Shown: positions 10,390-47,965, counted from the stretch's first letter. The stretch: DNA of 64,000 bases from Candidatus Poribacteria bacterium (GCA_965207975.1 OZ242315.1:5975197-6039196), one strand, 5' to 3'. Program-made: numbers and translations. Notes: a model not told the origin generated them from the sequence alone.

Positions 10390-11373
10390 ATGGCACAAAC
10401 AGGTACACAGGTTGTTGTTAGACCGGACAATAGCGTAGGAACGAAAGCGACTGAGATTCGATCGCCAGGAAGAGGTGAGGTACTTGTCGAGACAGTGTGT
10501 ACGCTGATTAGCGCGGGCACTGAACTCGGTACGCAAGAGCAGGGACGGACAGACGATTTTACCCCCGGTTACTCAAACACCGGGCAAATTGCCGAGATCG
10601 GTGAGGGAGTGGAGGGCTACGAGATCGGGGAGCGTGTGTTGTCGCTGGGATGCCACGCCAGTCATGTAACTGTGTCGGCTGCACCACAATCGTTGGCGAA
10701 ACTGCCGGATAGCGTGTCCTTCGCTGAGGGCACTTTCGGTGTGCTTGGAAGTGTTGCGATGCACGGTGTCCGAAAAGCGCGGATTGAGCTGGGTGAGTTC
10801 GCCTGCATTACGGGGATGGGGCTTGTCGGTCAGTTGGCGTTGCAGCTTGCAGCGCAAACGGGTGCGGAGTTACTCTTTGCTATTGATTTGAGTGAGCCGC
10901 GATTAGAGGTGGCAAGGGGTTCGGGGGCGACGCATACCCTGAATCCGAAGCGGTGTGATCTTCGCTCCGAGGTGGATAGCATCACCGAGGGACGTGGATT
11001 GGACGTGACCATTGAAGCGTCCGGTTATCCGGAGCTGCTGCCGATTGCGTTTGATATGGCGCGGATTGGTGGGCGGATTATGGCGTTGGGATCAATCTGG
11101 CACCGAAAGGTCGAGGTGGATTTTATGGATTTTCACCTGAAGGAACTGACCTTAGTTGGGTGTCATCAGCCGAAATGTCCGACGGTTGCGACGCCTGCGT
11201 TTCCTTGGACACAGCAATATAACCGACGGCAGATTTTGAAGATGATTGAGCGCGGTGAAATCAATGTGGATCGTTTAATCACGCACCGACTGCCGTATAC
11301 AGAAGCGGGTGAAGCTTACCGGCTGCTGCGTGATGAGCGGGATAAATCGTTGGGGGTCGTGTTGACTTGGTAG
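10390..11373 (+). CDS. MDR-superfamily (GroES-like plus Rossmann) dehydrogenase
   Basis: GRGEVLVETVCTLISAGTE N-domain and ITGMGLVGQLALQLAAQTGA NAD-binding fold. Start moved to ATG 10390 (GGAGGA 6 nt upstream) rather than TTG 10351. No canonical GHE zinc motif was seen, so it may be a non-zinc MDR. Confidence 0.75.
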   Translation: MAQTGTQVVVRPDNSVGTKATEIRSPGRGEVLVETVCTLISAGTELGTQEQGRTDDFTPGYSNTGQIAEIGEGVEGYEIGERVLSLGCHASHVTVSAAPQSLAKLPDSVSFAEGTFGVLGSVAMHGVRKARIELGEFACITGMGLVGQLALQLAAQTGAELLFAIDLSEPRLEVARGSGATHTLNPKRCDLRSEVDSITEGRGLDVTIEASGYPELLPIAFDMARIGGRIMALGSIWHRKVEVDFMDFHLKELTLVGCHQPKCPTVATPAFPWTQQYNRRQILKMIERGEINVDRLITHRLPYTEAGEAYRLLRDERDKSLGVVLTW

Positions 11374-11380
11374 TGAAACG

Positions 11381-11460
11381 AAAAGAATAATTACGTAATG
11401 CGTAATGCGTAAAATGGTTTCTTACATATTATGTATTACGTATTACATAGCTTTTGTGCT
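11381..11460. repeat. Interspersed intergenic element carrying aatgcgtaa / ttacgtaat motifs and ending ...tattacgtattacatag; related copies at 37041-37118 and 47826-47856
   Basis: The 17-mer tattacgtattacatag is shared exactly with 37099-37115, and aatgcgtaa units are shared with all three sites. Confidence 0.5.
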
Positions 11461-11493
11461 TGATTTAAGCCTAACCATTCGGAGGATCGCAGT

Positions 11494-12978
11494 ATGGAAC
11501 ACACAAATATCACGGCGCGAGAAATTCGATTATTTGCGATACTCGCGCTCGTAGCAGGGATCATTTTTGACTACCTGTTTTTTGGAAAGGCAATCGGGAT
11601 TTCGTATCCGTTGTTTGTGGCTGTTTTCTACTGCGTATTCTGGGTTGTATCACACAAACGGGTTTCGTTCCAAATTGACTTTGGTTGGTTTCTGTTTATC
11701 CCTATTTTATTGCTCTCGGCTGCGTTTGCCCTCCATTCAAACCCGGTGTTGCTTGCTCGCAATTTTGTCCTGATTCCACTGCTCCTGTTTGTTCAGACGA
11801 CGCTGCTTGTCTATGGATATGAGTGGTCTAGCGTGCGATGCGTCGGCCGTTTTATAGGAAGATTGCTCAGTCGATTTTTTGACAATGCGCCAAAGGTATT
11901 CTTGGAGGTAATCTCGCTAGCAAAAGTCGCGTACAGAATGGCACCTGAAAAGCGTAAGACTCTCAAAAATATCCTCATTGGCTTGATAATTTCTGCGCCT
12001 CTCTTACTTATTGTAATTGCATTGCTCGCGGAGGCGGATACGGTTTTTCAAAATGTTATCGCTGATATTTTCAAGTCTTTGGAATTTATTGATTCTATTC
12101 CTTTCGCCGAGCATGTGGGAGTTATTGGGATTATTACAGTGTTGCTGTTTGGTTATTTAGCGGTTGTACTAAGGGCAGAGGTGGAGGGGGTGCCCGCACC
12201 GGTGGAGAGAGGTACAGGGGGCTGGGACACTACGATCGTTGTTACAGTTTTGGTGATGGTGAACGCTGTTTACATTCTCTTCTGTGGAATTCAGTTTACA
12301 TACCTTTTTGGGGGTGAGGAAGTGATTCGCTCTATCCCTGATTACACTTACGCAGAATACGCGAGACGGGGTTTTTCCGAACTAATTGTTGTTACCGTTA
12401 TTAACCTAAGCATTTTACTGATAGGTTTGCGCGTCACCAAAAATGATGGCAAGTTGGATCGCTTAGTTCTTATGCTGCGCTGTCTGCTTGTACTTTGCAC
12501 CGTGATTATGCTCTATTCCGCACACTTGCGATTGAAGTTGTATGAGGAGGCGTACGGCTACACCTACGCACGGATTTTTGCCCACACATTTATCGGCTTG
12601 CTTTTTGTGCTGTTTATGCTTACCTTTTACAAGTTCTGGCGGAGGGAATTCCCTTTGCTCAAAGCGTTTGCTATCGCGGCGTTGCTCGCCTATACCACCC
12701 TGAACTACCTCAACGTTGACGCAGTTATTGCACGGAAAAACGTCGATAGGTACTTTACGACCGGTAAGATAGATCTTGACTATTTGCAGGAGCTGTCCTA
12801 CGATGCGATACCGGAATTAACACGTTTGGGTGCTGCGGACAGTGGAGATGTGGATAGAAAGAAGGTGGGAGCATTTCTTCGTGAGAAACAGGCGGAGCTG
12901 CGTTCAGAAAACTCTTGGCGATCCTACAATCTCTCGAAAGCGAAGGCAAAACGGATTCTGTCTGAAATTCAGCAGTGA
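11494..12978 (+). CDS. Polytopic integral membrane protein of unknown function
   Basis: About 10 predicted hydrophobic helices across 494 aa; no catalytic motif recognised. Confidence 0.5.
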   Translation: MEHTNITAREIRLFAILALVAGIIFDYLFFGKAIGISYPLFVAVFYCVFWVVSHKRVSFQIDFGWFLFIPILLLSAAFALHSNPVLLARNFVLIPLLLFVQTTLLVYGYEWSSVRCVGRFIGRLLSRFFDNAPKVFLEVISLAKVAYRMAPEKRKTLKNILIGLIISAPLLLIVIALLAEADTVFQNVIADIFKSLEFIDSIPFAEHVGVIGIITVLLFGYLAVVLRAEVEGVPAPVERGTGGWDTTIVVTVLVMVNAVYILFCGIQFTYLFGGEEVIRSIPDYTYAEYARRGFSELIVVTVINLSILLIGLRVTKNDGKLDRLVLMLRCLLVLCTVIMLYSAHLRLKLYEEAYGYTYARIFAHTFIGLLFVLFMLTFYKFWRREFPLLKAFAIAALLAYTTLNYLNVDAVIARKNVDRYFTTGKIDLDYLQELSYDAIPELTRLGAADSGDVDRKKVGAFLREKQAELRSENSWRSYNLSKAKAKRILSEIQQ

Positions 12979-13066
12979 TCTTTATAGGCAAGTTGCTACC
13001 TAGCAACCGCAGAGACACAGAGAACGCAGGGAATAAGAAAATGGGTAAAACATCTTGGCTCATGCA

Positions 13067-13098
13067 GAAACCGAGTTTTCAAGAAAAAACTCGGTTTC
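13067..13098. terminator. Bidirectional hairpin gaaaccgagtttt-caagaa-aaaactcggtttc (perfect 13-bp stem) between convergent genes
   Basis: Perfect inverted repeat; same family as 357-388 and 15199-15229. Confidence 0.55.
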
Positions 13099-13129
13099 TC
13101 TTAGTGGGTTACACTTTTTTACATGAACC

Positions 13130-13342
13130 TCAACCTTCGTCGCTGGTGAAGCCGTGTGTCTTGCCGTAGCGAGGCAGCCAGTAGTCTAACCATGTCTGTT
13201 CGCATCGCTCATCGCAAAACTTTAGGGATTTGTCGTTGTATTCTACGCGCCATAGTCGTCTAACCAACATCTTTCCACAGAGATCGCAATGATGGATTTG
13301 TGTGGCGTATAGTGCATCAGAAATTGGTTCCCACTGAGCCAT
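13130..13342 (-). CDS. Small zinc-ribbon protein (C-x2-C ... C-x3-C), translationally coupled to the upstream hydantoinase-B gene
   Basis: HHCDLCGK...KFCDERCEQ four-Cys pattern; its start overlaps the stop of the HyuB gene by 1 nt. Confidence 0.45.
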   Translation of the reverse strand: MAQWEPISDALYATQIHHCDLCGKMLVRRLWRVEYNDKSLKFCDERCEQTWLDYWLPRYGKTHGFTSDEG

Positions 13343-15165
13343 TAGGATACCTCCTCTGTTCCGGAAGAATTCGACCTTTCGCGACGAAGGTTGATTGTCC
13401 TATTTTCATCAATATGCCATTCCCCCGCTTCCTGAACAAGTGCCACGGCATATATATCATGTGCTTCTTCGGGGGATACCAAGCCCTCATGGATATCAGT
13501 CAGCACCTCGTTGGGCTCCCGATGTTCAGGGGGTCCATACCCACCGCCCCCCGGGCTGACAATCCTAATTTCATCTCCGGCTTGGATTTGAATGTCGGCG
13601 AATTTGTTGGGGGAGGGAGTTCCATAGACTTCGGAGAAGGTTCGCCAACGGTCATCTCCACTTTTCCGGATCCGCACCGCGCCGCTCGATCCTTCTTGTC
13701 CTCCGAACAACCCCCACGCCCCTGTCTCATGCCTGTCCATAAAACTGGAAACCGTGATTTCCGGTGTGAGTGCTTCGATAACCCTTTCACTGCCGCATCC
13801 GCCGCGATGCTGACCGTGCCCACCCGAATCCTCGACGATACGATATGTTTTCGTCAACCAAGGATAGCGTGTTTCAAAGACTTCGACTGGCGTATTTCGG
13901 CAATTTCCATTAATTGGACATTGTGTGTGATTGCCGTCGCCGGTCGCCTTGCCGCCCCAGCCGCAGCCATCGATGTGGTAGTTTGCGTAATACTGTCCTG
14001 TGCTTGGGTGTATTCCTCCGAAAAGGAAGTTGCACGAACTGGCACCGGTCGCTGCGGCGACACGCTCCGGTACAGCACCTGATAGACATCCGAACAGGAC
14101 ATCGACGATCCGCTCGTGGATCTCGGAGTTGCCGCCGACACTGGGACCTGGGTGTTTCACGTTCACGACGGTGCCCGGCGGGACGATCAGTTGAATTGGT
14201 CGATAACATCCTGAGTTGCGGGGGATAGTCTGGTCGGTGATATTGAGCATTGCGTTGAACGTGGCAGATGCCGTCACACCGTAGGTGCAGTTGCAGGGAC
14301 CGCGCGCTTGGGGACTTGAACCGGTGTAATCAAAGAGGATGTTTTCGTCGTCCACGATGGCTGTGCAGTTGATCCGATACCGTTTGTCTGGAACGACACC
14401 GTCATTTTCGATCCAGTCGTCGAATTGGTATTCGCCGTTGGGGAGGTCTCGGATTTCTGCCCGCATTCGTGCCTCTGAATAGTCCATGAGCTGCTTCCCG
14501 GCGGTGAGGATTTCATCAAATCCGTAACGGTCAAGCAGTTCGTGGAGGCGCCGTTCCGCTACGTTGAGGGATCCAAGCATTGCGTGGAAATCGCCCCAAG
14601 AGGTGCGTGGTGTCCGGTGGTTTTCGAGGATAATTTTCCAGATGTCCTCAACGGGTTCCCCTTCTCGGATGATCTTGACCGGCGGCAATCGGAGGCCTTC
14701 TTGGTACACCTCCTTGGCATCGGCTGCAAAGCCGCCGACTGCTTTCCCACCGATCTCTGTAACGTGGGCGATGTTGCCGATAAACCCGTATAACTCGCCG
14801 TTGTGGTAGACTGCTTGGATCACTGTATGCTCCGGCATGTGACATCCGCCGCGATACGGGTCGTTGTGCATCACCACATCGCCGGGTTTGAAGTTCTCCA
14901 GACCGATTTCGGCGATTGTCCACTGCATGGTATAGAGAATTGCGCCGATCTGGGCGGGACAAAACTCCGCATAAGCGACCATCTCGCCATCACGGTCGAA
15001 GATGACGCAGGAGAAATCTAGTCCTTCGTTAAAGATGGAGGAGTATGAGGTCTTCATCATCGCCAATCCCATCTCACGACAGGTGTTGACGAGGTAGTTG
15101 TTGATGATAGTGAGTGTAACGCTGTCGATCGGTTTTTCTGTTTTCATTTTTTCTTTAATCAGCAA
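13342..15165 (-). CDS. Hydantoinase B / 5-oxoprolinase / acetone-carboxylase-alpha family protein (HyuB domain)
   Basis: N-terminal LTIINNYLVNTCREMGLAMMKTSYSSIFNEGLDFSCVIFDRDGEMVA matches the Hydantoinase_B signature region; 607 aa. Confidence 0.85.
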   Translation of the reverse strand: MLIKEKMKTEKPIDSVTLTIINNYLVNTCREMGLAMMKTSYSSIFNEGLDFSCVIFDRDGEMVAYAEFCPAQIGAILYTMQWTIAEIGLENFKPGDVVMHNDPYRGGCHMPEHTVIQAVYHNGELYGFIGNIAHVTEIGGKAVGGFAADAKEVYQEGLRLPPVKIIREGEPVEDIWKIILENHRTPRTSWGDFHAMLGSLNVAERRLHELLDRYGFDEILTAGKQLMDYSEARMRAEIRDLPNGEYQFDDWIENDGVVPDKRYRINCTAIVDDENILFDYTGSSPQARGPCNCTYGVTASATFNAMLNITDQTIPRNSGCYRPIQLIVPPGTVVNVKHPGPSVGGNSEIHERIVDVLFGCLSGAVPERVAAATGASSCNFLFGGIHPSTGQYYANYHIDGCGWGGKATGDGNHTQCPINGNCRNTPVEVFETRYPWLTKTYRIVEDSGGHGQHRGGCGSERVIEALTPEITVSSFMDRHETGAWGLFGGQEGSSGAVRIRKSGDDRWRTFSEVYGTPSPNKFADIQIQAGDEIRIVSPGGGGYGPPEHREPNEVLTDIHEGLVSPEEAHDIYAVALVQEAGEWHIDENRTINLRRERSNSSGTEEVS

Positions 15166-15198
15166 TTCGCAGTAGCGTGGTTGATTGAGTGTCCATCA

Positions 15199-15229
15199 GA
15201 AACCGAAGCTTTCCAAGAAACTCGATTTC
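15199..15229. terminator. Degenerate copy of the gaaaccga...tcggtttc hairpin family
   Basis: agaaaccgaagctttccaagaaactcgatttct, 3' of the lipoprotein gene. Confidence 0.35.
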
Positions 15230-15298
15230 TCGAATTAGAGCCTGTTTGGGAGGGTAGACAGCGAATCTACCTATTACAGGTGTCAACTCGATTAGGCT

Positions 15299-15781
15299 TT
15301 ATTTCTGTTTGAAGCTGATACTACGGCCATTATCACCGATGAGTGTAAGAATATTCCCTGCTCTAGACCATGTACCGGTGCTTTCTTTGAGAGAAGCGAT
15401 AGGAATCTCTTGTAGTGTGAGAGTATAGTTGGAACCAGAGAGGGAGTAAGTGCCCGTTGTTTTAGTTGAACTCGTTATTGCAATTGCGGAGTCTCCGCCT
15501 TGATTTCCAAGTTTAAAACTGATCTCCGCTTCCAACGTTCCATCGTCATTAAATGTCCAGTTGTTGGCAACAATGGAAACAGTTACTTCCTCTGTTCCCA
15601 ATTCTTGTTCCAAAACTTGTTCCAGAGTCTGACCATCAAAGGTTTCGAGACTCCATGTCCCGCCCCAGTTGTTATCATCAGCCCCATTATCATCACCGCC
15701 GCAACCGATAATTCCGACAATAAAAACTGTACAAAGGCTAGCTAACCGCAAAAACGGACAAGGAATTACTAGTTGAAACAT
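15299..15781 (-). CDS. Lipoprotein of unknown function (signal peptide plus lipobox IIGC)
   Basis: MFQLVIPCPFLRLASLCTVFIVGIIGCGGDDN...; start placed at the ATG with AGGAGA RBS (15779-15781) rather than the track start. Confidence 0.5.
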   Translation of the reverse strand: MFQLVIPCPFLRLASLCTVFIVGIIGCGGDDNGADDNNWGGTWSLETFDGQTLEQVLEQELGTEEVTVSIVANNWTFNDDGTLEAEISFKLGNQGGDSAIAITSSTKTTGTYSLSGSNYTLTLQEIPIASLKESTGTWSRAGNILTLIGDNGRSISFKQK

Positions 15782-15896
15782 TTTTTCTCCTGTTAAGTTA
15801 GAATAAACTTTACGTTTTAACCTTGAAGGGTCTCGCGTTGGACAGCTACTGCTGAATGGCTGCTGTTGTGAGCATCTCAAGGACTTGTGGGTGCGC

Positions 15897-17531
15897 TCAA
15901 GGTACTGTTGCTACAGCCCCAAACGCATCTGCAACCCACACCAGATCCAACATATTAACTACCCCATCTCCATTAATATCTGTTGCCAAATCCGGGCCTT
16001 CACTACCAAAAGCGGACGCAACCAAAACCAAATCTAGGAGATTCACGATGCCGTCGTCGTTGACATCCGTTGCAATCGGTGGTGGTTCTGTATCGGAGAT
16101 AACGTTAAAGATTACCGGATCATCTATAACCAATCCCGCAGCGGTTGCGGAAACGGTGTGTATTCCCAAATTCTCTCCTAGCGTGAGTGTGCTCTGCGCC
16201 CTGCCGTTTTGATGGGTGGTTGTGTGTGTGACACTGAGCGTTCCATCGCCGGCAGTTACGGCAAATGTCACCGGAACCCCCTCAAACGCGGAACCGTACT
16301 CATCTCGGATTTCAACGACAAATGGGTTCAGCATTACAGAGGGGGAACCGCGCTGATAACCTGATATTCCCAAGATTGTTGTTGGGGTACGGTGGCGAAA
16401 GCGGACGCTAACGCCTCTCGTTCTTAGGACCGGGATGTGTGTGTTAATCGATAGATAGCTCAGGGGATTTCCTCGCAGCGCAACCACGTCTTCAGCTCCC
16501 AATCCTGTATTTGCGACTAGGGTTGAGATATCCGATATGAAGTTATTATCAATCCACAGCCATTTAAGATTAGTCAATCTTGATAGAGGTGAAATGTCCG
16601 ATATGGAATTGTGCACGAGATCTAACTCCATCAGATTGATTAATCCTGCCACCGGCGAAATATCAGATATTAGGTTGCCTCCAAGATCTAGATCTATCAA
16701 GTTGGTCAAGTCTGATACCACTGAAATATCGGATATTGCGTTGCCTCCTAGGCGCAGTGTTGTCAGATTGGTCGAGCCTAACAACACTGAAATGTCGGAT
16801 ATTGCGTTGTCTCCAAGATTCAGTATCCTCAAGTTGGTCAAGCCTGATATTATCGAAATGTCGGATATTGTGTTGCCTCTTAGACGCAGTGTTGTCAGGT
16901 TGGTCAAGCCTGATACTATCGAAATGTCGGATATTGCGTTGTCTCCAAGATCTAACCGTCTCAGATTACTTAATTCTGCTATGGGTGAAATGTCTGATAT
17001 CATGTTGTATCCAAGATTCAGTTTTATCAGGTTAGTTAATCCCACTAAAGGTGACATATCGGATATAGAATTTTCCCAGAGATCCAGTTCTGTCAGGTCA
17101 GTCAATTTTGCTATAGGTGACATATCGGATATAGAGTTTTCTGAGAGAGATAGTCGTTTCAGATGAGTTAATTCCACTATAGGTGAAATGTCGGATATTG
17201 CGTTGCTTCCAAGTCCCAGTTGTGTAAGGTTAGTTAATCCCGCTAGAGGCGAAATATCGGATATAGAGTTGTTCCAGAGATCCAGTTCTGTCAGGTTGGT
17301 TGCAAACTCGAGCCCGGCCAAATCGCTTATGCTAGCTTCATCTGCTTCAAGGTAAGTCAAAGTTTCCATCTCTGCCACGGTGATTGTGGCACCTGATGTC
17401 TTACCGAAGGCGGCTTCGACGACAGCGCGGAGGTTGGGGTCGGGGATGTTCACTGTTTGTGCCGTTGTCGTCAACGGAATTGAGATGCAGATTAACAGGA
17501 AAAAAGTGAGACGAAACATTTGTGTTCTCAT
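15897..17531 (-). CDS. Secreted internalin-like leucine-rich-repeat protein with tandem dockerin-type Ca-binding repeats; a paralogue of 18982-21177 that lacks the T9SS C-terminal domain
   Basis: Signal peptide MRTQMFRLTFFLLICISIPLTTTAQ; about 15 22-residue LRR units (LTNLTxLxLxxNxISDISPLAGL); C-terminal VNDDGIVNLLDLVLVASAFG...DINGDGVVNMLDLVWVADAFG (dockerin type I pattern). Confidence 0.75.
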   Translation of the reverse strand: MRTQMFRLTFFLLICISIPLTTTAQTVNIPDPNLRAVVEAAFGKTSGATITVAEMETLTYLEADEASISDLAGLEFATNLTELDLWNNSISDISPLAGLTNLTQLGLGSNAISDISPIVELTHLKRLSLSENSISDMSPIAKLTDLTELDLWENSISDMSPLVGLTNLIKLNLGYNMISDISPIAELSNLRRLDLGDNAISDISIVSGLTNLTTLRLRGNTISDISIISGLTNLRILNLGDNAISDISVLLGSTNLTTLRLGGNAISDISVVSDLTNLIDLDLGGNLISDISPVAGLINLMELDLVHNSISDISPLSRLTNLKWLWIDNNFISDISTLVANTGLGAEDVVALRGNPLSYLSINTHIPVLRTRGVSVRFRHRTPTTILGISGYQRGSPSVMLNPFVVEIRDEYGSAFEGVPVTFAVTAGDGTLSVTHTTTHQNGRAQSTLTLGENLGIHTVSATAAGLVIDDPVIFNVISDTEPPPIATDVNDDGIVNLLDLVLVASAFGSEGPDLATDINGDGVVNMLDLVWVADAFGAVATVP

Positions 17532-17610
17532 GGGTTTATCTCCTGTGCGATTAGGAATGCGTGTGAGGTTTCTGTGGATTGATTGCTTGGTACTCTTATC
17601 CAGACGAAGA
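15915..17610. repeat. Copy 1 of a roughly 1.7-1.8 kb direct repeat (LRR gene body plus its upstream region); copy 2 is at about 19425-21257
   Basis: Near-identical blocks, e.g. 16021-16110 against 19531-19620, and the 5' ends/upstream regions 17520-17610 against 21160-21250; both are in the same orientation. Confidence 0.7.
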
Positions 17611-17747
17611 TCTCGGTTTCACTCGAGAGAGAATTTTATGCCGATCAGCATACTACAAAATCAGCATACTACAAAATAAGGGGGTAAGTCAACGTTTTTT
17701 TGGGATTCGATGTTCTTGGAGAGGTAATTTCCGCTCAGGTTTTTTGG

Positions 17748-17776
17748 TTTACAGCGACCTTCTGTCATGCTATAAT
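17748..17776 (+). promoter_or_regulatory. Strong sigma-70-type promoter TTTACA-N17-TATAAT with extended -10 (TGcTATAAT), upstream of ribE; a duplicated copy lies at 22388-22416
   Basis: Hexamers and 17-bp spacing read directly; about a 50-bp block including this promoter is repeated at 22372-22425. Confidence 0.6.
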
Positions 17777-17861
17777 AACTCACCTAACCCACGGTCAACA
17801 TCCCTGATAAAAATCGGGGGAACAAACCTTAATGGGGAGATTGAAACTAAAACAGATAGCC

Positions 17862-18506
17862 ATGTTCACAGGAATTGTTGCGGAGTTGGGAAACGTGAGG
17901 GCCGTTCAGCGCGGTTCACAAGCGGGAGTGCTGACTATTGCAGCCGCAGAGGTGTTATCGGATGGGGTTGTCGGGGATAGCATTGCGATAGATGGGGTCT
18001 GTCTGACAATCACCAATCTGGGGCACGACAGTTTCACAGCAGATGTTTCTGCCGAGACGTTGCGGCGCACAACTTTAGGCTACCTCAAACCGGGCGATCC
18101 GGTCAATCTTGAGAACCCATTGCGCTTGGTAGATCGGTTGGGCGGGCATCTCGTTTTAGGGCATGTTGACGAGGTGGGGACCATCAGCGGTTGGCAGGAT
18201 GAAGGTACATCATCTTTAATGCGCGTCTCGATTTCTGAGGAGACAATGCGGTATGTGGTGTATAAGGGATCGATCTGTGTTGACGGTGTCAGTCTGACAA
18301 TCTCAAACCTGTTTGACGACGGTTTTGAGGTCGCACTTATTCCCCACACCAAAGAGGTCACGACGTTAGGGCATAAACGGGTCGGCGCGCATGTGAATAT
18401 TGAGGTGGATATATTAGGGCGTTATATTGAACGGTTGTTGACCTATCCGTCTAGCGAAGGATCATCAATTGATATGGACTTCTTAGCAAAGCACGGATAT
18501 ATTTGA
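17862..18506 (+). CDS. ribE: Riboflavin synthase alpha subunit
   Basis: MFTGIV... start; two lumazine-binding repeats (DSIAIDGVCLTI / GSICVDGVSLTI). The ORF-track start at 17832 is an upstream extension. Confidence 0.9.
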   Translation: MFTGIVAELGNVRAVQRGSQAGVLTIAAAEVLSDGVVGDSIAIDGVCLTITNLGHDSFTADVSAETLRRTTLGYLKPGDPVNLENPLRLVDRLGGHLVLGHVDEVGTISGWQDEGTSSLMRVSISEETMRYVVYKGSICVDGVSLTISNLFDDGFEVALIPHTKEVTTLGHKRVGAHVNIEVDILGRYIERLLTYPSSEGSSIDMDFLAKHGYI

Positions 18507-18521
18507 AATCAAAATTTCGAC

Positions 18522-18690
18522 TATGATGAATTCTAAAAATAAATAGACACTTTCGCCCCTCGGTTTCGATCCCGATTCTCGGGATTCCGATGTATCGGAA
18601 CAGGAATACGGGAGGAAGAGAACGGTAGGTGCGGTTAGGAAACCGCACCGGCTTGGAGTGTCCCATTAATTCTAAGATTCACTATAATTG
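18522..18690. repeat. Intergenic repeat element, copy A (tatgRtgaattctaaaaataaatagac...ggtaggtgcggtt-loop-aaccgcacc...gagtgtcccattaattctaagatNNactataaNtg); copies B at 22213-22374 and C at 23014-23119
   Basis: Three copies share about 30-bp 5' and 3' ends and an internal 9-13 bp perfect hairpin (ggtaggtgcggtt/aaccgcacc); internal length varies (169, 162 and 106 bp). Confidence 0.65.
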
Positions 18691-18981
18691 CGAAAATTAT
18701 ATCTTATTTTATACACCGTATGCCTCTGTCTTTGACATACGCTCATGCAAATCCTCTTGTAGCTATCCTGATACATCGGGCTGATCTTCCACAGATTAGC
18801 CAACTTGTGCCTCGGCGGAATTTACCCCTTGGTTCTGACTGTTCAACTGCGTAAACCCTTTAATAACGCAAGTTGCTAGATTCTGTTGACCACCTGTTCA
18901 ACTTGCCCCGCCCGTTCGTGCCAAAAACTTAGTTTCTGTTGCACGATTTCTTTACATGAGCCTACTTTTTAACCCACTTTC

Positions 18982-21177
18982 CTACTTGAGAATCGTCATC
19001 TTCCGTGTGGCAGAATAATCGCCCGCTGTAAGGGTGTAAAAGTAAGTGCCACTTGCCACAGGTTCGCCGAATTCATTTTTGCCATCCCAATAGGCGGCAC
19101 GGCTACGGGTCTGATATATACCTGCGGGCTGATGTCCGAAGGCTAACTGCCGAACTGCTTGTCCGCTTGTGTCGTAAATAGTCAAGGTGACATCTGCATC
19201 CTTTGCGAGATTATACGGTATCCACGTCTCTGGATTGAACGGATTCGGATAGTTGAGCAACAAAACAGTTTCTTTCGGTATCAGTGTTGCAAGAAGTTGC
19301 TCTAGAAACAAAATGCCTCTTAGAGACGTTGCATCTGTGAGGTCTAGTTGTTGTGCTTGGAAAAGCCACCACTTTACATCTGCTGCGATCAACATTTCAA
19401 GTGCTTGTGCCGACGGTGCGGCCTCCGCAGCTCCAAACGCATCCGCAACCCATACCAAATCCGAAATATTAACTACCCCATCTCCATTAACATCCGTTGC
19501 TATATCCGGGACCTTGCTCCCGAATGTGGACGCAACCAAAACCAAATCTAGAAGATTCACGACACCGTCGTCGTTGACATCCGTTGCAATCGGTGGTGGT
19601 TCTGTATCGGAGATAACGTTAAAGATTACTGGATCATCTATAACCCATCCCGCAGCGGTTGCAGAAACGGTGTGTATTCCCAAATTCTCTCCTAGTGTGA
19701 GCGTGCTCTGCGCCCTGCCGTTTTCGTCAGTAGTTGTGTGTGTGGCACTGAGTCTGCCGTCACCGGCAGTCACGGCAAACGTGACCGGAACCCCCCCAAA
19801 CGCAGAACCGTACTCATCTCGCACTTCAACGACAAATGGTTTCAGCGTTACAGAGGGGGAGCCGCGCTGGTAGCCTGAGATTTTCAAGATTGCCGAAGGG
19901 GTACGGTGGCGAAAAATTACCTTAACTCGTCTTTCTTTTAAAATTGGGATGTGTGTGTTAATCGATGGGTAGCTCAAGGGATTGCCTCGCAGCTCAACTT
20001 CATCTGCATACCCCAACCCTGTATTTGCTACCAACGCTGAGACATCCAATATAGAGTTATTCGCAAGGTATAACCATGTCAGATGAGTCAATCCTGTCAC
20101 AGCCGAAATATCAGATATGGAGTTATTCGCAAGGTATAACCATGTCAGATGAGTCAATCCCGCCACTGGTGAAATATCGGATATAGAGTTGCCTTCAAGA
20201 TCGAGATCTGTCAGATGAATCAATCCCACCACAGGCGAAATATCAGATATAGAATTGCCTCCCAGATATAGCAATGTCAGCTTGGTTAATCCGGCTGTCG
20301 CCGATATATCGGATACCGAGTTCTCCCCAAGATCTAGCTCTTTGAGGTCGGCTAATCCCATCACTGCTGATATATCCAACACTGCGTTGTCCCGAAGAGA
20401 CAACATGGTCAGGTTAGTCAATCCTGCTAGGGGCGAAATATCGGATATAGAGTTACCATCCAAATACAGCTGTGTCAAGCTGGTTAACTCTGCCGCAGCC
20501 GAAATATCTGCTATCAAGTTACTCCCCAAAAACAGCGATGTCAGATTAGTTAATCCCGCTAGGGGCGAAATATCGGATACCGAGTTCTTTGAAAGACGTA
20601 GTGCTATCAGGTTAGTCAACCCTGCTATGGGTAAAATATCGGGTATAGAGTTGTATCTTAAATCCAACTCTATCAGTTTGGTTAATCCCGCCACGGGCGA
20701 AATATCAGATATAGAGTTGCCTCCGAAGAATAACTTAGTCAGATTAGTTAATCCCACCACGGGCGAAATATCGGATATAGAGTTATCCCAAAGGTCTAGC
20801 CGTGTTAGATTAATCAACCCTGCTACAGGCGAAATATCGGATATAGCATTGCGTCCAAGAGATAGCTTTGTCAGGTTAGTTAATCCCGCCACGGGCGAAA
20901 TATCGGATATAGAGTTATCCCAAAGATACAGTCGTGTCAAATTAGTCGCGAACTCGAGTCCGGTCAAATCGCTTATGCTAGCGTCCTGTCCTTCAAGGCG
21001 GGTCAAAGTCCCCATCTCTGCTACAGTGATTGGGTCCCCCGATGCTTTACGGAGAGCGGATTCGATAACAGCGCGGAGGTTCGGGTCGGGAAGGTTTACC
21101 GTTTGCGCCCTTGTCGGCAACGGAATCGAGACGCAAATTAGCAGGAAAAAAGTGAGACGAAAAAATTGTGTTTTCAT
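18982..21177 (-). CDS. Secreted internalin-like LRR protein with dockerin-type repeats and a T9SS-type C-terminal sorting domain (Por_Secre_tail)
   Basis: Signal peptide MKTQFFRLTFFLLICVSIPLPTRAQ; about 17 LRR units; VNDDGVVNLLDLVLVASTFG...DVNGDGVVNISDLVWVADAFG; C-terminal LLLNYPNPFNPETWIPYNL...GTYFYTLTAGDYSATRKMTILK. Confidence 0.8.
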   Translation of the reverse strand: MKTQFFRLTFFLLICVSIPLPTRAQTVNLPDPNLRAVIESALRKASGDPITVAEMGTLTRLEGQDASISDLTGLEFATNLTRLYLWDNSISDISPVAGLTNLTKLSLGRNAISDISPVAGLINLTRLDLWDNSISDISPVVGLTNLTKLFFGGNSISDISPVAGLTKLIELDLRYNSIPDILPIAGLTNLIALRLSKNSVSDISPLAGLTNLTSLFLGSNLIADISAAAELTSLTQLYLDGNSISDISPLAGLTNLTMLSLRDNAVLDISAVMGLADLKELDLGENSVSDISATAGLTKLTLLYLGGNSISDISPVVGLIHLTDLDLEGNSISDISPVAGLTHLTWLYLANNSISDISAVTGLTHLTWLYLANNSILDVSALVANTGLGYADEVELRGNPLSYPSINTHIPILKERRVKVIFRHRTPSAILKISGYQRGSPSVTLKPFVVEVRDEYGSAFGGVPVTFAVTAGDGRLSATHTTTDENGRAQSTLTLGENLGIHTVSATAAGWVIDDPVIFNVISDTEPPPIATDVNDDGVVNLLDLVLVASTFGSKVPDIATDVNGDGVVNISDLVWVADAFGAAEAAPSAQALEMLIAADVKWWLFQAQQLDLTDATSLRGILFLEQLLATLIPKETVLLLNYPNPFNPETWIPYNLAKDADVTLTIYDTSGQAVRQLAFGHQPAGIYQTRSRAAYWDGKNEFGEPVASGTYFYTLTAGDYSATRKMTILK

Positions 21178-21257
21178 GGATTTATCCCCTAGCAGTTGGA
21201 AATGTGGGTAGGTATCTGTGCCTTGGTGGTTTGTTACCCTTATCCGAACGGGGCATC

Positions 21258-22167
21258 TATAGTAGACGCAAGAAATAACGGGACAATAGTTTAGAAGTAT
21301 GTTATCCTGTTTGCATTATGGCACATTCATCAGATTTACGCACACGCGTCCTTCAATTCATAGAAAATGGTGGCAGTAAAACAGAAGCGGCAAAACGGTT
21401 CAAAGTCGGTCGAACTGCGATTTACCGATGGCTCAATGACCCAGACCCACTCACACCGGGCAAACCGGGTCCCCGAAAACCGAGACTACTTGACCCAACG
21501 GCACTGGCTGAACATGTCAAGGCACACCCTGACCAAACCCTTAAAGAACGCGCCACACACTTTGGGGTTTCACCCGCCTGTGTCGGCTATGGACTCAAAA
21601 GACTCGGCTACACGCGTAAAAAAAAACGGTTGGATATAAGGAGCAATGTCCAGAAAAACGACAAGCCTATCAGGAGCAACTCGCAACGGCGAAAGCATCA
21701 GGCAAAACGCTGATTTACCTCGACGAGACCGGTTTTACAGATGAAACGTTTAGAAGTCATGGCTATGCCCCCCGGGGACAATGTGTCCAGGGGTTGATAC
21801 CCAGCCAAAAGACCCGCACCACCACTTTGATAGTGGCACAACTGAATAATAAGTTGATTGCCCCAAAGTTAATATCGGGCAGTTGTAATGCACAACGGTT
21901 TAATACATGGCTTGATGAAGCGTTATCGCCACATTTAGATGCCAACAGTCTCGTGATAATGGATAATGCACGCATTCACAAGACCACCGAGACCCAAGCA
22001 TTGATACAAGCCTGTGGTGCTAAGGTGTTATACTTGCCCCCGTATTCGCCGGATTATAATCCCGTTGAACAAAAGTTTGCCAATATAAAGAGAGTCCGGT
22101 CATACAATGCGGATAAGCCCATTGAGGAGATTATCAATATGTATCGTTAATTGTTAAATCTACTATA
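21258..22167 (+). mobile_element. IS630-family insertion sequence (about 910 bp) with imperfect terminal inverted repeats tatagtaga... / ...tctactata and flanking TA
   Basis: Left end ctaTAGTAGACGCAAGAAATAACG (21257-21280) against the reverse complement of the right end (22153-22177), about 18/25 matches; it interrupts the otherwise duplicated LRR upstream region. Confidence 0.55.
21318..22150 (+). CDS. IS630/Tc1-mariner-family DDE transposase, two frames joined by a -1 shift within the A9 run at 21618-21626 (programmed frameshift or pseudogene)
   Basis: N-terminal HTH part (frame 0, to 21713) plus C-terminal catalytic part in the -1 frame (open from 21620): YLDETGF ... IMDNARIHK ... LPPYSPDYNPVEQ (DDE triad context). 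Confidence 0.75.
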
Positions 22168-22212
22168 ATTTCCCCGCCATAGCCTCGCGTCCGGTCAAAG
22201 CTACGGGAGAAT

Positions 22213-22374
22213 TATGGTGAATTCTAAAAAATAAATAGACGCTTTCGCCCCTCGGTTTCGGTCTCCCCGATAAATCAGGGTAAACTAATTATCGGGGCCG
22301 GTAGGTGCGGTTTCCCACCGCACCGATTTGGAGTGTTTTATTCATTCTAAGATCCACTATAAATGACTCTAACG
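22213..22374. repeat. Intergenic repeat element, copy B
   Basis: See copy A; it sits immediately right of the IS630 end. Confidence 0.6.
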
Positions 22375-22387
22375 CTCAGGTTTTTGG

Positions 22388-22416
22388 TTTACAGAGACCT
22401 TGAGTCATGCTATAAT
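22388..22416 (+). promoter_or_regulatory. Duplicate of the ribE promoter (TTTACA-N17-TATAAT); no ORF follows for about 700 bp
   Basis: cgctcaggtttttggtttacagAgaccttGAGtcatgctataataac against 17733-17779. Confidence 0.5.
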
Positions 22417-23013
22417 AACCACAGTTGCTGCTTCCGATACTGGAGGCTGAACCGGGGCTTATTTGCCTAGCAAACCCTCGTTATTTTTTCTATGGGAACG
22501 TGACTGAAAAGCTCGGTTTCTCTTGTGAATACGCAACTTAGGTTGTTATCATCGCAGACAAATGCAGTACTTTAACCCTCTGCGATTGTTAGCAACTTGT
22601 GTGCCATGCCTTTGTTAACAATGAGGAACGCAGTCAGAATGATCGGGAGATCCCTCGAACCGTCGAATTTCATCGTCAGATCCGAATAGGTATCGTTACA
22701 CACAACATACCCGTGAAGTTAAGGGTCTTGTTGTGGATTGGCACCCCATCCGGCTCATTGACACCTCTGGAACAATCTAGCCGTGACTACCCAGAAATCG
22801 GGCGCATCTCACTTGTACATGATTTGAAAATTGCCCGATACCGTGCGAACCAGTTGGTGCTTTTAACCTTAAGTGTGCGAAGTACAGATTAGATGACTGG
22901 TAGAGAGGTATGACTCGCGCCCGATGTCTGATTAGGGTCTATCAGTCTATATTCCCCAAGATCTGTAAATCCCATAGTGAATGAGTCGATTTGCTATCTT
23001 AATCGAAAAGATT

Positions 23014-23119
23014 TATGGTGAACGCTAAAAATAAATAGACACTTTCACCCTCCGGTAGGTGCGGTTTCCTAACCGCACCTACCGGAGCGTCCCATTAATT
23101 CTAAGATCTACTATAAATG
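23014..23119. repeat. Intergenic repeat element, copy C (short form), abutting the ribBA start
   Basis: See copy A; it contains the full 13-bp hairpin ggtaggtgcggtttcctaaccgcacctacc. Confidence 0.6.
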
Positions 23120-23131
23120 AAGGCCTCACCT

Positions 23132-24391
23132 ATGAAGTTTAACACAATCCCAGAAGCCATTGAAGCGATACGAAATGGAGAGATGATTATCGTCTCCGAT
23201 GATCCGGATCGGGAGAATGAAGGCGATTTAATCATGGCAGCGGAGAAAGCCACGCCGGAGGCGATTAATTTTATGGCAAAGTATGGGCGTGGTATGATTT
23301 GTCTTCCTGCAACCTCGGAACGTCTTTCAGAGTTGAATCTCCCGTTGATGGTCTCGGAAAACACGGCCCAACTGCATACGGCGTTTACAGTAACAATTGA
23401 TGCCAGCGATGTGACCACCGGGATTTCCGCCTACGAGCGGGCGCATACGATTCAGAAGTTTGTCCAGCCAGAGACGAAAGCGGAGGATTTCGTTCGTCCG
23501 GGACATATCTTTCCGTTACAGGCTGAGGAGGGTGGCGTATTGCGGCGTGCCGGTCATACGGAGGCGACAGTTGATTTGGCGCGTTTGGCGGGACTGTATC
23601 CGGCGGGGGTTCTCTGCGAAATCTTGAACGAAGATGGCACTATGGCACGCTTGCCGCAGCTTCTCGAATTTGCTGAAAAATATGAGCTAAAGTTCATTAC
23701 CATTGCGGACCTGATCGCTTACCGACGGCAGACAGAGACGCTTATCAAGCGGGTCGCCGAGGCGGATCTTCAAACGAGGCATGGATACTTCAGACTGCAC
23801 TCCTATCAGAGTGCGGACGATGAGAAAACTCACATTGCACTGATTAAAGGAGATATTTCGGATGGTGGGCCGGTACTGGTACGGATGCACTCACAATGCT
23901 TTACTGGAGATGTGTTCGGTTCGCTGCGCTGCGACTGTGGCGAACAGTTGGAGAAAGCGATGCAACTCATCCAGAAAGAGGGGCGGGGTGTCTTAGTCTA
24001 TATGCGTCAGGAGGGGCGCGGTATGGGGCTTGGAAACAAGATTCGTGCCTACCGATTGCAGGATAGCGAGGGGCTTGATACCGTTGAGGCGAATGAGCGG
24101 CTCGGTTTTCCTCCAGATTTGCGGGATTACGGCGTGGGTGCCCAGATTTTGACAGATCTCGGTGTGCAGAAGATGCGTCTGTTGACTAACAACCCTCGCA
24201 AGGTGAGCGGTTTGGAGGGACATAACTTGGAGATTGTCGAGCGGATTCCGCTGCAAACTAGACCCCACGAATTTAACCGGCACTATTTGGAAACGAAGAA
24301 AACGAAACTTGGGCATTTGTTGTTAGATACTATCAACGAGGAGAAGGAGGAGACGGTGCACGGCTACGATGGGCTGATGGTTCAAGGCTAA
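23132..24391 (+). CDS. ribBA: Bifunctional 3,4-dihydroxy-2-butanone-4-phosphate synthase / GTP cyclohydrolase II
   Basis: RibB part [25 protein letters not shown]...; RibA part [24 protein letters not shown] (zinc Cys triad). An alternative in-frame start exists at 23117. Confidence 0.9.
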
Positions 24392-24410
24392 ACAGCGTGC
24401 ACTGGGTACA

Positions 24411-24881
24411 ATGCCAAATATCTACGAAGGCAATCTTATCGGTACTGACCTGAAAATTGGAATCGTGGTCAGTCGGTTTAATAGCTTTATCACCACCAAA
24501 TTGTTGGACGGGGCAATTGACGCGCTGAAACGTCACGGCGTGGACGAGGATGATGTGGACATCTGCTGGACGCCCGGTTCGTTTGAAATCCCCACTACGG
24601 CAAAACGGCTTGCTGAAAAGGAACGATATGATGCGGTCATCTGTATCGGTGCGGTCATTCGTGGTGCAACCCCCCACTTCGACTTTGTTGCCAACGAAAG
24701 CGCGAAAGGGATCGCACAGGTTTCTCTCAATACCGGGATCCCGGTGATTTATGGTGTTATCACGACCGATACGATTGAGCAGGCGATTGAACGTGCTGGC
24801 ACGAAGGCGGGGAATAAAGGGGCAGAGGCGGCGGTCACGGCGATTGAGATGGCGAACCTGTATCGGCAAATTGATGGATAG
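24411..24881 (+). CDS. ribH: 6,7-dimethyl-8-ribityllumazine synthase
   Basis: [44 protein letters not shown]..., canonical RibH. Confidence 0.9.
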
Positions 24882-24902
24882 ACGAATTGATAGGCACTAT
24901 AT

Positions 24903-25760
24903 ATGGCAGCCTTAGAAGAAATCAAAATTGGTAATGGGCGGATTATCAAAGGGGACTGTCTCTCAGTTATGGATAATTTTCCCGACAACCATTTTATGCT
25001 TGGGTTCACCTCGCCTCCCTACCTGAACGCGATCAATTACGAGGAGCATATTGAAAAACTGCACGGGGCCAAAGCACGATGGGAGCGGGAAGATATATCC
25101 TACGAGGAATATCGGCGTTTTCTGGAGAATCGGTTCAAGGCGTTGCTGCGAATTACAAAGCCGGGGGGACATAATGTCGTAAATATTGCACCGGTCCTAT
25201 GGAACGGTACGCGCACTGCCCTCCCTTTTCATTTTGTCAGCTGGCTTGAACAAATTGGGTGGCAATTCAAGGAGGATATTATCTGGGAAAAGCCGGTTGC
25301 GAGGGATAGGCGATCAGGGGTTTTGTTACAGCATCCCTATCCCGGATATTACTACCCTAGCTTGGTTGCCGAATATATTTTTGTCTTTCAGAAACCTGCC
25401 GATAAGAAAAGTCAGAACAACATTTACTGGAATAGAAGTGAGGAAGAGAAAACAAGGAATGCAATTGACCTCAAGGACTATCAAGGCGAGAAGAGCAAAA
25501 ACGTTTGGAAAATCCGTCCATTAGCCCCCCAAGAAAATTTGCATCCCTGTCCATTTCCGTTGGAACTCGCGGAACGGGTCGTCCAGTTTTACTCTTATAA
25601 GGGAGATTCGGTGATTGACATCTTTGCCGGAAGTGGACAGACAAATTGTGCCGCGGAGAAACTAGGTAGAGCGCATGTCGGCATTGAAACGCAACAGAAA
25701 TACATAGATTATGCGGTTGAACAGCTTCGTCCAATTGTTGATCAAGGACAGTTGTTTTAA
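24903..25760 (+). CDS. Beta-class DNA amino-methyltransferase (N6-adenine or N4-cytosine; N6_N4_Mtase fold), M1 of an M-R-M triplet
   Basis: Motif IV SPPY (FTSPPYLNAINYE) precedes motif I FxGxG (IDIFAGSGQT), the beta-class order; 22 bp after ribH. Confidence 0.85.
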   Translation: MAALEEIKIGNGRIIKGDCLSVMDNFPDNHFMLGFTSPPYLNAINYEEHIEKLHGAKARWEREDISYEEYRRFLENRFKALLRITKPGGHNVVNIAPVLWNGTRTALPFHFVSWLEQIGWQFKEDIIWEKPVARDRRSGVLLQHPYPGYYYPSLVAEYIFVFQKPADKKSQNNIYWNRSEEEKTRNAIDLKDYQGEKSKNVWKIRPLAPQENLHPCPFPLELAERVVQFYSYKGDSVIDIFAGSGQTNCAAEKLGRAHVGIETQQKYIDYAVEQLRPIVDQGQLF

Positions 25761-25787
25761 CCTTATTAGAGGTGTAACGAGAACCTG

Positions 25788-26849
25788 ATGGATATTTTCG
25801 CTAGGATCACTGGAGTAAAATATACCCCACTTCTGTGCAGCAAACTTAAATCTTTCAGCTATAAGGATTTTGACGCAACACTTTCAGACAAAGCAACTTT
25901 CATTCTACAGATTGATCCAACCAAGCAGATTGCTTTAAGCTGCTGGGTTTCACCAAAAAGGACACGGTCTTACCCGTATTCAAGGGTCTATGATACATTG
26001 GGCTTTTCTGGCAAGAAAGCAACAATAATTCCAATTTTGAAGGATGAGGGTAAACAGGGCGATCGAGACTTTCTCCAATGGGATACAATCTCTTTAATGA
26101 GTTTGTTGGGCGTTTACGTGATAATTGGCTACTATGCTGATGCTTCAAAAAGCACAAGATACACGCATAAAATCACGGGACAAAAGTTTAATTCAGAGCA
26201 CATCATGAGCGAAATTGATCGGTTGATGTCTTATCAATCCGATGCTCTGCATTGGAACATAACGCAAGTCGAAGGTATCGGCGAAATTGGTTCGCAAGCG
26301 TTGAACGCCTATTCGGTTATCTCTGAAAAACTAGACGTGGAAATGCACTCTTGGGAGTCTGCGGAACGTCGAATCAATATACTTCGTGAAGGTCAGGCAG
26401 AGTTTAAAACACTATCAAGGAACTTGGCAAGGCAGGCACAGGCAAGAGAGAGTATCACGACACAGCCCAAAGAGCACATAGAGGGAATCAAAGGGAAGCT
26501 AACCATCAAAAATTATCTTGGTGGCAATTATTATTTGACCTGTGATGAGGTTGAAATCCATGGGGAGGAAATCTATCTCGTTGAAGCGAAGCATACGAAC
26601 AAAGATGAGCTGCCTTCCCTCGGTGATATAAAAGATGGTTTGGTGAAAATGATACTATTTACAAACTTGGAAAACCTAAAAGTTGATGAGAGAGATTACA
26701 ATCCTGTGCCAGTTTTGAAGTTGACGACGGGTGAGGGATTCAGTCTTAACTCGCTTAACCGCCCGCAGCAAAACCGTCTTACGAATCTAAAGCAGGAAGC
26801 CGAAACCAATGGATTTCGGATTATGATCAATGATGGATTTTTCACGTAA
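25788..26849 (+). CDS. Candidate restriction endonuclease (putative PD-(D/E)xK) sandwiched between the two methyltransferases
   Basis: Position between M1 and M2 with 28-bp and 12-bp gaps; a possible D...ExK in ...TCDEVEIHGEEIYLVEAKH...; no family was recognised. Confidence 0.4.
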   Translation: MDIFARITGVKYTPLLCSKLKSFSYKDFDATLSDKATFILQIDPTKQIALSCWVSPKRTRSYPYSRVYDTLGFSGKKATIIPILKDEGKQGDRDFLQWDTISLMSLLGVYVIIGYYADASKSTRYTHKITGQKFNSEHIMSEIDRLMSYQSDALHWNITQVEGIGEIGSQALNAYSVISEKLDVEMHSWESAERRINILREGQAEFKTLSRNLARQAQARESITTQPKEHIEGIKGKLTIKNYLGGNYYLTCDEVEIHGEEIYLVEAKHTNKDELPSLGDIKDGLVKMILFTNLENLKVDERDYNPVPVLKLTTGEGFSLNSLNRPQQNRLTNLKQEAETNGFRIMINDGFFT

Positions 26850-26860
26850 TGGGATAGAGT

Positions 26861-37118: not shown

Positions 37119-37772
37119 AATGGGCATATCCTGTAGGATTGTATTCAGTATGCCATAAAATCATGTCCAAGTCTATATTTTCTTGTGAACCAAAGTCTTT
37201 AGATTACACCGTTAGCTTACCCATTTTTGACAAAGTAGGGATAGTAGAGACTGCAACTAGCGCACCATATCGCTCCAGTCGGCAGAGTTATTTTTTTGGA
37301 CGGAGGCTTTTTTCGTTGCATCATACCAGAAAACGTCAGCTTTTTGATTTTTCTGGCAAAATAACGCAAGTTGTTAGCCTCTGTTGACATTTATGTGAGG
37401 TGTGTCCTTAATTCGCCGAAAAACACCTAATAGTAGGGGCGAGGTTTCCTCGCCCAACGGGTTGGTGTTCAACCTATAAGTGGGTATTGAGTTACACACA
37501 TGTCGCCCCGCTGGGGCTTGGGCGTTGGTCAATTTGTTGTGCTTCTATACACATATCGCCTCTCTGGAGCTTTGAGGGTCAAACCATGAGCCCACCACTA
37601 CCAACTATCAGCGTGAAATAAGCAGTTTGACTAACTGGCATACGAAGGTTATACTACTGAGACGTGCTGTCAAATGTCAACACGCCCAGCAACGTGTGCT
37701 AAATTTAATGTAAAACAGATTGGAGAATGTCAAAAGTGTTACGGTGTATCTGCACAGCCCAGAGGAGGAGTT

Positions 37773-47856: not shown

Positions 47857-47965
47857 AAAACGTGTCTCCAACTGATTGCAATGCCAAATTAGGTTGACAT
47901 ATTCCCAACCTAGTGGCACAATAATTACCAAGACTTTTTTGGATGAAAGGAAAGTAATTGAAATA

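Follow-up and report, generated by a model that had tools for sequence, protein, structure and literature searches.

Diverged leucine-rich repeat paralogues around ribE in Candidatus Poribacteria: probable gene-family turnover in a split riboflavin operon

Why do two related genes of leucine-rich repeat (LRR) proteins stand in direct orientation on either side of the riboflavin synthase gene ribE, and is such a layout a recombination device or a record of how the genes came to be neighbours? The question is raised by a stretch of 64,000 nucleotides (nt) of a Candidatus Poribacteria bacterium (GCA_965207975.1 OZ242315.1:5975197-6039196), called here the window, in which two minus-strand genes, LRR-A and LRR-B (A and B), encode LRR proteins with a dockerin domain. 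The initial annotation of this DNA had proposed a cassette system that varies a surface-displayed adhesin. In the present study, the window was compared with 17 Candidatus Poribacteria loci (L001-L017), many of them on closed chromosomes, with ribE genes 86-90% identical to that of the window. The comparison makes it probable that LRR-A and LRR-B are old paralogues of a large poribacterial family, A being the resident gene and B lying on an exchanged insert, and that the locus reflects turnover of a gene family and not a device.

Divergence and domain content of the two paralogues

The two open reading frames (ORFs) bracketing ribE are paralogous, as had been annotated: the encoded proteins are 67% identical, with two gaps of 22 amino acids (aa) (BLASTP E=0). 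Homology of their 5′ and 3′ regions, including the signal peptide and some upstream DNA, was also confirmed, but the description of these regions as near-identical was not, since A and B are 76-86% identical in nucleotide sequence and show a synonymous divergence (dS) of 0.41-0.51. The 5′ blocks (A 17601-16976, B 21245-20622) are 76% identical and the 3′ blocks (A 16699-15914, B 20213-19428) 83%, with 86% in the part coding for the C-cap, Big_1 and dockerin. The signal-peptide DNA is 87% identical, and homology reaches only about 68 nt 5′ of the ATG. Interior LRR units are 55-80% identical, without a one-to-one match. Homology extends over 1.69 kb of A and 1.82 kb of B.

Misassembly, the caveat attached to the initial annotation, has no observation in its favour and is excluded for all practical purposes. 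Duplicated or collapsed contig ends would have to account for copies with unlike domain content and 14-24% of differing sites, which is too much for a collapse, and the same A-ribE-B order is present in L003 (OZ220744.1), the independently assembled closed chromosome of a related species.

The proposal that A and B form a recombination or gene-conversion cassette varying a displayed adhesin, with direct repeats driving deletion or amplification of ribE, draws on the direct orientation of the copies, their distance of 3.5 kb and their longest exact matches (65, 32, 25 and 24 nt). It also draws on the junction of Big_1 and dockerin, where about 150-180 nt (A 16031-16211, B 19545-19725) are 95-100% identical among window A, L003 A and B in surroundings that are 73-88% identical. 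This tract suggests past conversion, namely an old homogenisation, but it lies in the constant tail and not in the variable LRR head. The remaining evidence also speaks against a cassette. The identity of A and B is no higher within a genome than between genomes (86/86/86/85%; 85% for L003 A to window B), which argues against ongoing conversion, and the 14-24% divergence and the dS given above are those of old copies. Neither copy is a silent cassette, each having an ATG, a putative signal peptide, the shared 5′ region and a homologous 68-nt leader. Of the marks of antigenic variation that were looked for, promoterless or partial silent cassettes were not found, both genes being complete, nor was ongoing within-genome conversion, the one old tract apart. 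As to ribE, its loss would break riboflavin synthesis; the gene is kept at 17/17 related loci, and neither A/B hybrids nor an A-ribBA junction were seen. The cassette and the repeat-driven loss of ribE are both improbable on this evidence.

The copies also differ in their C-termini. Matches to LRR_4/LRR_8, Big_1 and Dockerin_1 (Pfam) were obtained for both proteins. Dockerin_1 (PF00404) scored 35.0 bits in A and 32.5 bits in B (cutoff 22.9), and the Ca-binding segment is duplicated (motifs DVNDDGxVNLLD and D(I/V)NGDGVVNxxD). A type IX secretion system (T9SS) C-terminal sorting domain (CTD) is present in B only, at residues 643-729 of 731: TIGR04183 scored 33.3 bits (cutoff 23) and PF13860 FlgD_ig 41 bits (cutoff 27), while Pfam PF18962 Por_Secre_tail remained at 22.9, below its cutoff of 27. 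The earlier domain calls thus hold, as does the observation that the upstream copy stops after the dockerin and the downstream one runs into the CTD. Profile comparison with TIGR04183/FlgD_ig gave no CTD match in A, which ends 10 residues past the dockerin match and so is not a member of the T9SS type A CTD cargo. In B, dockerin and CTD are joined by about 55 aa that are predicted to form a helical linker.

The two proteins begin with nearly identical segments that resemble a signal peptide. By inspection, the N-terminus MKTQFFRLTFFLLICVSIPLPTRA-QT has a charged N-region, its core is hydrophobic and its cleavage motif has small residues; it is kept in all orthologues. Among solved structures, internalin A (InlA, E=3e-81) is the best match of the LRR region, and cellulosomal dockerins match the dockerin weakly (2y3n_B, E=6e-7). 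An AlphaFold2 model of the C-terminal 347 aa of B is confident for Big_1 only and for the CTD in part, with a predicted local distance difference test (pLDDT) score <50 for dockerin and linker; a fold search with this model confirmed only the intimin-like Ig domain (Big_1). Judged from these sequence features, both proteins would be Sec-exported, located at the surface and ligand-binding.

Age of the two genes and the split of the rib operon

The gene order common to the set is orf11494(+), hydB(-), a lipocalin-like gene(-), a variable island(-), ribE, ribBA and ribH. LRR-A-type genes occupy the same island position in L003, L010, L011, L012, L014 and L015. A family gene between ribE and ribBA, that is LRR-B, is found only in the window and L003 among the 17 loci and the window, and the ribE-ribBA gap is about 22 nt in 8 genomes of the set.

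LRR-B of the window is 97.6% identical in nucleotide sequence to its L003 counterpart (L003 10828-13023), the segment 18969-21259 comprising B and its leader. Its dS is 0.060, with a ratio of nonsynonymous to synonymous divergence (dN/dS) of 0.20. For the neighbouring genes, dS between the window and L003 is 0.54 (hydB), 0.55 (LRR-A), 0.40 (ribE), 0.62 (ribBA), 0.35 (ribH) and 0.41 (orf24903); the flanking DNA is 85-91% identical and the non-coding part of the insert (22300-23000) 95-98%. The B tract thus coalesces about 6-10 times more recently than the neighbour genes, a sign of exchange between lineages. That this identity stems from strong constraint, or from a slowly evolving gene inherited vertically, is very improbable. 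B is indeed under purifying selection, as its dN/dS indicates, but its dS is about 6-10 times below that of five of the six neighbours, including the highly constrained ribBA, and the non-coding DNA of the insert is equally conserved. Moreover, orf11494 (window 11494-12978, a DUF4153 gene) is a second recently exchanged tract (dS 0.105 against L003), so the genomes of the window and L003 are recombination mosaics. The CTD-bearing LRR-B thus appears to be a newcomer at the locus, and its route would have been recombination between poribacterial lineages after their divergence.

When a tree was built from the 3′ region, B fell together with window A, L003 A and L015 A (84-86% identity) and far from the A genes of L010-L014 (70-74%), which indicates that B derives from an A-locus-type gene. 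The donor of B was not found in a metagenome scan, in which no relative was closer than 70% and none stood in a rib context; exact-sequence matches to A, B and ribE were absent from the assembly collection.

The insert that parts ribE from ribBA is about 4.6 kb long (about 3.7 kb without an IS630-family insertion sequence). It carries a second copy, about 90% identical and about 700 nt 5′ of ribBA, of a putative promoter element that is conserved 5′ of ribE in 17/17 close poribacterial loci. Apart from this duplicate and its L003 counterpart, the 50-nt element occurs in the 17 loci only 5′ of ribE. The two copies hold the best two sigma-70-like sites in 8 kb (11/12 matches plus TG; Table 1). 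The insert would therefore carry a replacement promoter for ribBA-ribH, with B transcribed against the operon, and the duplicate probably restores transcription of ribBA-ribH after the operon split. Tandem duplication of an A-promoter-ribE unit was also considered; a second, decayed ribE 3′ of the promoter copy was found neither by tblastn nor by sensitive blastn.

The history of LRR-A seems to be different. All its orthologues end just past the dockerin, and the stop lies at the same codon (...AFGxxxxxP/L/H*) in six of the seven, the window included, and a few codons earlier in L003. In-frame read-through past the TGA gives AHPQVLEMLTTAAIQQ or THPQALDMVTTAAIQQ (window, L015), which aligns with the B linker SAQALEMLIAADVKWW, after which the DNA enters the ribosome-binding site of the lipocalin gene. 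Since linker codons survive past the stop, the CTD was truly lost, by a stop codon and a deletion. The loss of the sorting domain from one copy, claimed in the initial annotation, is therefore real, although it is ancient and not a recent decay, the CTD being absent from 7/7 orthologues. The dN/dS of the A orthologues is 0.25-0.38 (8 pairwise comparisons, dS up to 0.96), against 0.02-0.05 for ribBA. Reading frames of 544-563 aa are intact in six species besides L015, and the putative signal peptides are kept. From these comparisons LRR-A appears to be the resident gene, with an ancient CTD loss and a truncated form kept since then under purifying selection.

Several observations weigh against this history of a maintained LRR-A and an incoming LRR-B. 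In L015, the ATG of the A gene is replaced by an Ile codon. The gene at the A position of L013 is left with a signal peptide, a Big_1 remnant, a dockerin and a CTD, its LRRs being deleted and its stop lost, and L002 has a frameshifted CTD remnant there. The L013 and L002 remnants indicate that CTD-bearing genes formerly stood at the A position, and, together with the L015 gene without ATG, that some A-locus genes are decaying and the A island is in birth-and-death flux. LRR-B nests inside a clade of CTD-less A genes, so that one of three events has to be assumed: separation of the B lineage ahead of the stop, renewed acquisition of the tail or an old conversion. The promoter copy was recognised by its consensus and is not a mapped start site. 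Finally, a study of poribacterial single-amplified genomes reported finding no structural genes of the T9SS (Kamke et al. 2014, PMC3909097).

The decay seen in L015, L013 and L002, and the lack in A of the CTD that is usual in the family, could be read as signs that LRR-A is a functionless truncated pseudogene and B alone is functional. This is unlikely in view of the intact frames, the kept signal peptides, the mostly common stop and the dN/dS values maintained over considerable synonymous divergence; furthermore, the CTD-less form recurs, being seen in about 5 of the 120 best family matches.

LRR arrays and other features of the locus

The 66-bp periodicity reported for the LRR arrays is real: Tandem Repeats Finder gave 67-73% matches at a 66-nt period, and the 66-nt units within one gene are 52-85% identical. 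The estimate of about 15 units against 17 was right in giving B two more, but the canonical 22-aa units number 12 in A and 14 in B (14 and 16 with the capping units). There are 12 units in the A genes of the window, L010, L011, L012 and L014, 13 in those of L003 and L015, and 14 in both B genes, so that the number differs by at most one among the A orthologues of seven species. The suggestion that the array expands and contracts thus stands as a description of evolutionary change, but not of high-frequency slippage, for which units of such low identity leave little room. A slippage-prone contingency locus was ruled out on the same two grounds, unit identity and the near-constant count.

Orthology of units between window A and L003 A is recognisable for the last three only (83%), and the interior units are less similar than the 3′ coding part (89%) and the ribE region (85-90%). 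The two B alleles show TCG/GCG (Ser/Ala) differences at residues 94, 116, 138 and 160, the same position in four successive units, a pattern that would be best explained by conversion between units. Across 100 units, L4, L7, L9 and N12 are invariant, and positions 6, 8, 10 and 11, which are exposed on the concave face in the LxxLxLxxN strand, have the highest entropy.

The features of the locus are listed in Table 1. The spacer element is 103-166 nt long, and the ribE-ribBA gap contains all three window copies. The native spacer between these genes in L001 consists almost entirely of one copy; the element has weakly inverted ends similar to the IS630 terminus (..CTACTATAA). The element may be either a miniature inverted-repeat transposable element or a duplicated native spacer. 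The 3′ end of the extra 293 nt, on to position 18981 before the stop of B, resembles the 3′ flanks of family genes (L003 A, L008). The IS630-family element has terminal inverted repeats TAGTAG/CTACTA and a TA target duplication (21258-59, 22166-67). Its transposase is split into a helix-turn-helix ORF (21318-21713) and a DDE ORF (21794-22150), and near 21620 there is an A9 run. The element falls short of typical IS630 members in length and is probably defective, and its absence from L003 indicates a recent insertion. A 97-aa ORF at 22599-22892 has no Pfam match. A search of 11000-27000 with Rfam found no FMN (flavin mononucleotide) riboswitch, the sole match being sub-threshold and inside ribBA.

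Table 1. Features of the rib locus, with positions counted from the first nucleotide of the window.
Feature	Position	Strand	Description
Lipocalin-like lipoprotein gene	15299-15781	-	downstream of A; conserved neighbour of the variable island
Linker vestige	15830-15896	-	about 20 codons 3′ of the TGA of A; alignable with B codons 590-610
LRR-A	15897-17531	-	544 aa; putative signal peptide, N-cap, 12 LRR units, C-cap, Big_1, dockerin; without CTD
LRR-A, type I dockerin	15930-16070		
LRR-A, Big_1	16128-16328		
LRR-A, LRR units	16512-17303		22-aa units
5′ leader of A	17532-17601	-	matches B 21178-21245
rib promoter element	17732-17783	+	TTTACA-17-TATAAT with upstream TG at 17748-17776
ribE (riboflavin synthase)	17862-18506	+	TIGR00187, 216 bits; between both paralogues
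Spacer element copy 1	18522-18687	+	holds hairpin GGTGCGGTT..AACCGCACC
Extra 293 nt	18676-18968	.	present in the window, absent from L003
LRR-B	18982-21177	-	731 aa; putative signal peptide, N-cap, 14 LRR units, C-cap, Big_1, dockerin, linker, CTD
LRR-B, CTD	18985-19251		TIGR04183/FlgD_ig
LRR-B, dockerin	19444-19584		
LRR-B, Big_1	19639-19833		
LRR-B, LRR units	20026-20949		
5′ leader of B	21178-21245	-	homologous to A leader
IS630-family element	21260-22165	+	906 bp; absent from L003
Spacer element copy 2	22213-22362	+	
rib promoter element duplicate	22373-22422	+	TTTACA-17-TATAAT at 22388-22416
Spacer element copy 3	23014-23116	+	abuts ribBA start codon
ribBA	23117-24391	+	cut off from ribE by the insert
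ribH	24411-24881	+	cut off from ribE by the insert

Among the neighbouring genes, the lipocalin-like gene is syntenic yet fast-diverging: its aa identity is 48-87%, compared with 91-96% in hydB next to it. On the other side, 3′ of ribH, two N6_N4 DNA methyltransferase genes (24903-27754 and 28491-29627) flank a 353-aa ORF without a Pfam match; together they may represent a restriction-modification unit, in the vicinity of which there is a TnpB (OrfB_IS605/Cas12f-like) gene.

The protein family and comparison with known systems

LRR-A and LRR-B are members of an already known, very large family of poribacterial eukaryote-like proteins. A tail of Big_1, Dockerin_1 and FlgD_ig/Por_Secre_tail was found in more than 7000 proteins at E<=1e-10, in which the head consists of LRRs, WD40 repeats or other domains, or is missing. 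The island next to the rib genes is hypervariable across species: besides LRR-Big-dockerin genes, it holds LRR-cadherin-dockerin-CTD genes in L004 and L009, WD40-dockerin-CTD genes in L008 and L013, a cadherin-dockerin-CTD gene with an N-truncated LRR remnant in L005 and an arylsulfotransferase-CTD gene in L016, and L001, L006 and L017 have no recognisable family gene. Clustered members are common elsewhere too, with two to three dockerin-CTD genes within 10 kb on the metagenome contigs L083 (Ga0209544_1000017) and L084. In the window itself, an M36 (fungalysin-like) metallopeptidase of 1387 aa (37674-41837) with a PPC domain carries a TIGR04183 CTD (31.5 bits) that is 61% identical to the CTD of LRR-B.

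Among the window proteins scanned, which are a part of all window ORFs, no T9SS machinery (PorK-N, SprA/Sov, PorU, PorV) was detected. A 1412-aa Reg_prop beta-propeller protein (47876-52114) was considered as a PorZ orthologue and rejected, as it scored 76.9 bits with NF052228 against a cutoff of 260. In a literature search on Poribacteria with dockerin, cohesin, T9SS and TIGR04183, only one paper was relevant. It describes abundant LRR (PF12799) proteins, signal peptides, and TIGR04183 tails on many poribacterial eukaryote-like proteins; dockerin modules go unmentioned in it (0 occurrences), and this locus, the series of CTD-less orthologues and the rib operon split are not described there (PMC3909097).

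The history that best accommodates these data would run as follows. Each of the two proteins combines an internalin-like LRR head with a tail of common type, Big_1-dockerin(-linker-CTD). A would have lost linker and CTD through a stop codon and a deletion, in an ancestor shared by at least seven species, and then have been kept in its dockerin-ended form. B would have kept the full tail, and its insert would have split the normally contiguous ribE-ribBA pair, the promoter copy being able to keep ribBA-ribH transcribed. The LRR arrays would diversify by gain and loss of units, conversion between units and substitutions in the concave binding face, which would fit changing ligand or host specificity. 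The direct-repeat layout would then be a by-product of gene history.

A more far-reaching but doubtful reading is that the tail is a handle for surface display and head swapping specific to Poribacteria, a phylum reported to be without T9SS machinery. The rib island would then be a population-level hotspot of exchange and the junction tract a crossover site, and CTD-less proteins such as LRR-A would be kept at the surface by docking on a partner instead of by a CTD of their own. The mechanism favoured here, gene-family turnover, is an ordinary one and not a programmed variation device. What the locus offers is a dated case of turnover in eukaryote-like genes, in which a tail-less form seems to have been kept for long and a full copy to have moved on an operon-splitting insert, and in which a fixed scaffold bears an LRR binding face that changes fast. 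Eukaryote-like repeat proteins are believed to serve sponge symbionts in dealing with their host. The locus also sharpens the question of which roles a T9SS-type sorting domain and a dockerin play in Poribacteria, a phylum without shown T9SS machinery or cohesins.

Compared with known systems, the dockerins of A and B are like non-cellulosomal type I dockerins in their two Ca-binding DxNxDGxxxxxD repeats and in passing the PF00404 cutoff; a difference is that no carbohydrate-active enzyme is attached. The nearest relatives by phylum are the poribacterial proteins of Kamke et al. (2014), which share with LRR-B the LRRs and the Por-type CTD. In Bacteroidota, LRR proteins with a classical CTD are known T9SS cargo, among them the surface-attached adhesins BspA of Tannerella forsythia and PG0350, an internalin, of Porphyromonas gingivalis (PMC5445135). 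LRR-B differs from these two in its phylum, its 22-aa internalin-like units, the added type I dockerin and the helical linker. BspA carries Ig domains, and the combination of an LRR head, Ig-like domain(s) and a classical CTD is what LRR-B has in common with BspA and PG0350. Finally, A and B resemble the class 1 internalins of Listeria (InlA, InlB, InlH) in their 22-residue LxxLxLxxNxIxDIxxL units, N-cap and Ig-like domain. They differ from them in the NF033189 score (218-268 bits against a cutoff of 1600), in the Gram-negative-type host and in having no LPXTG or GW anchor; where the Listeria proteins have their anchor, the C-terminus is formed by the dockerin in LRR-A and by the CTD in LRR-B.

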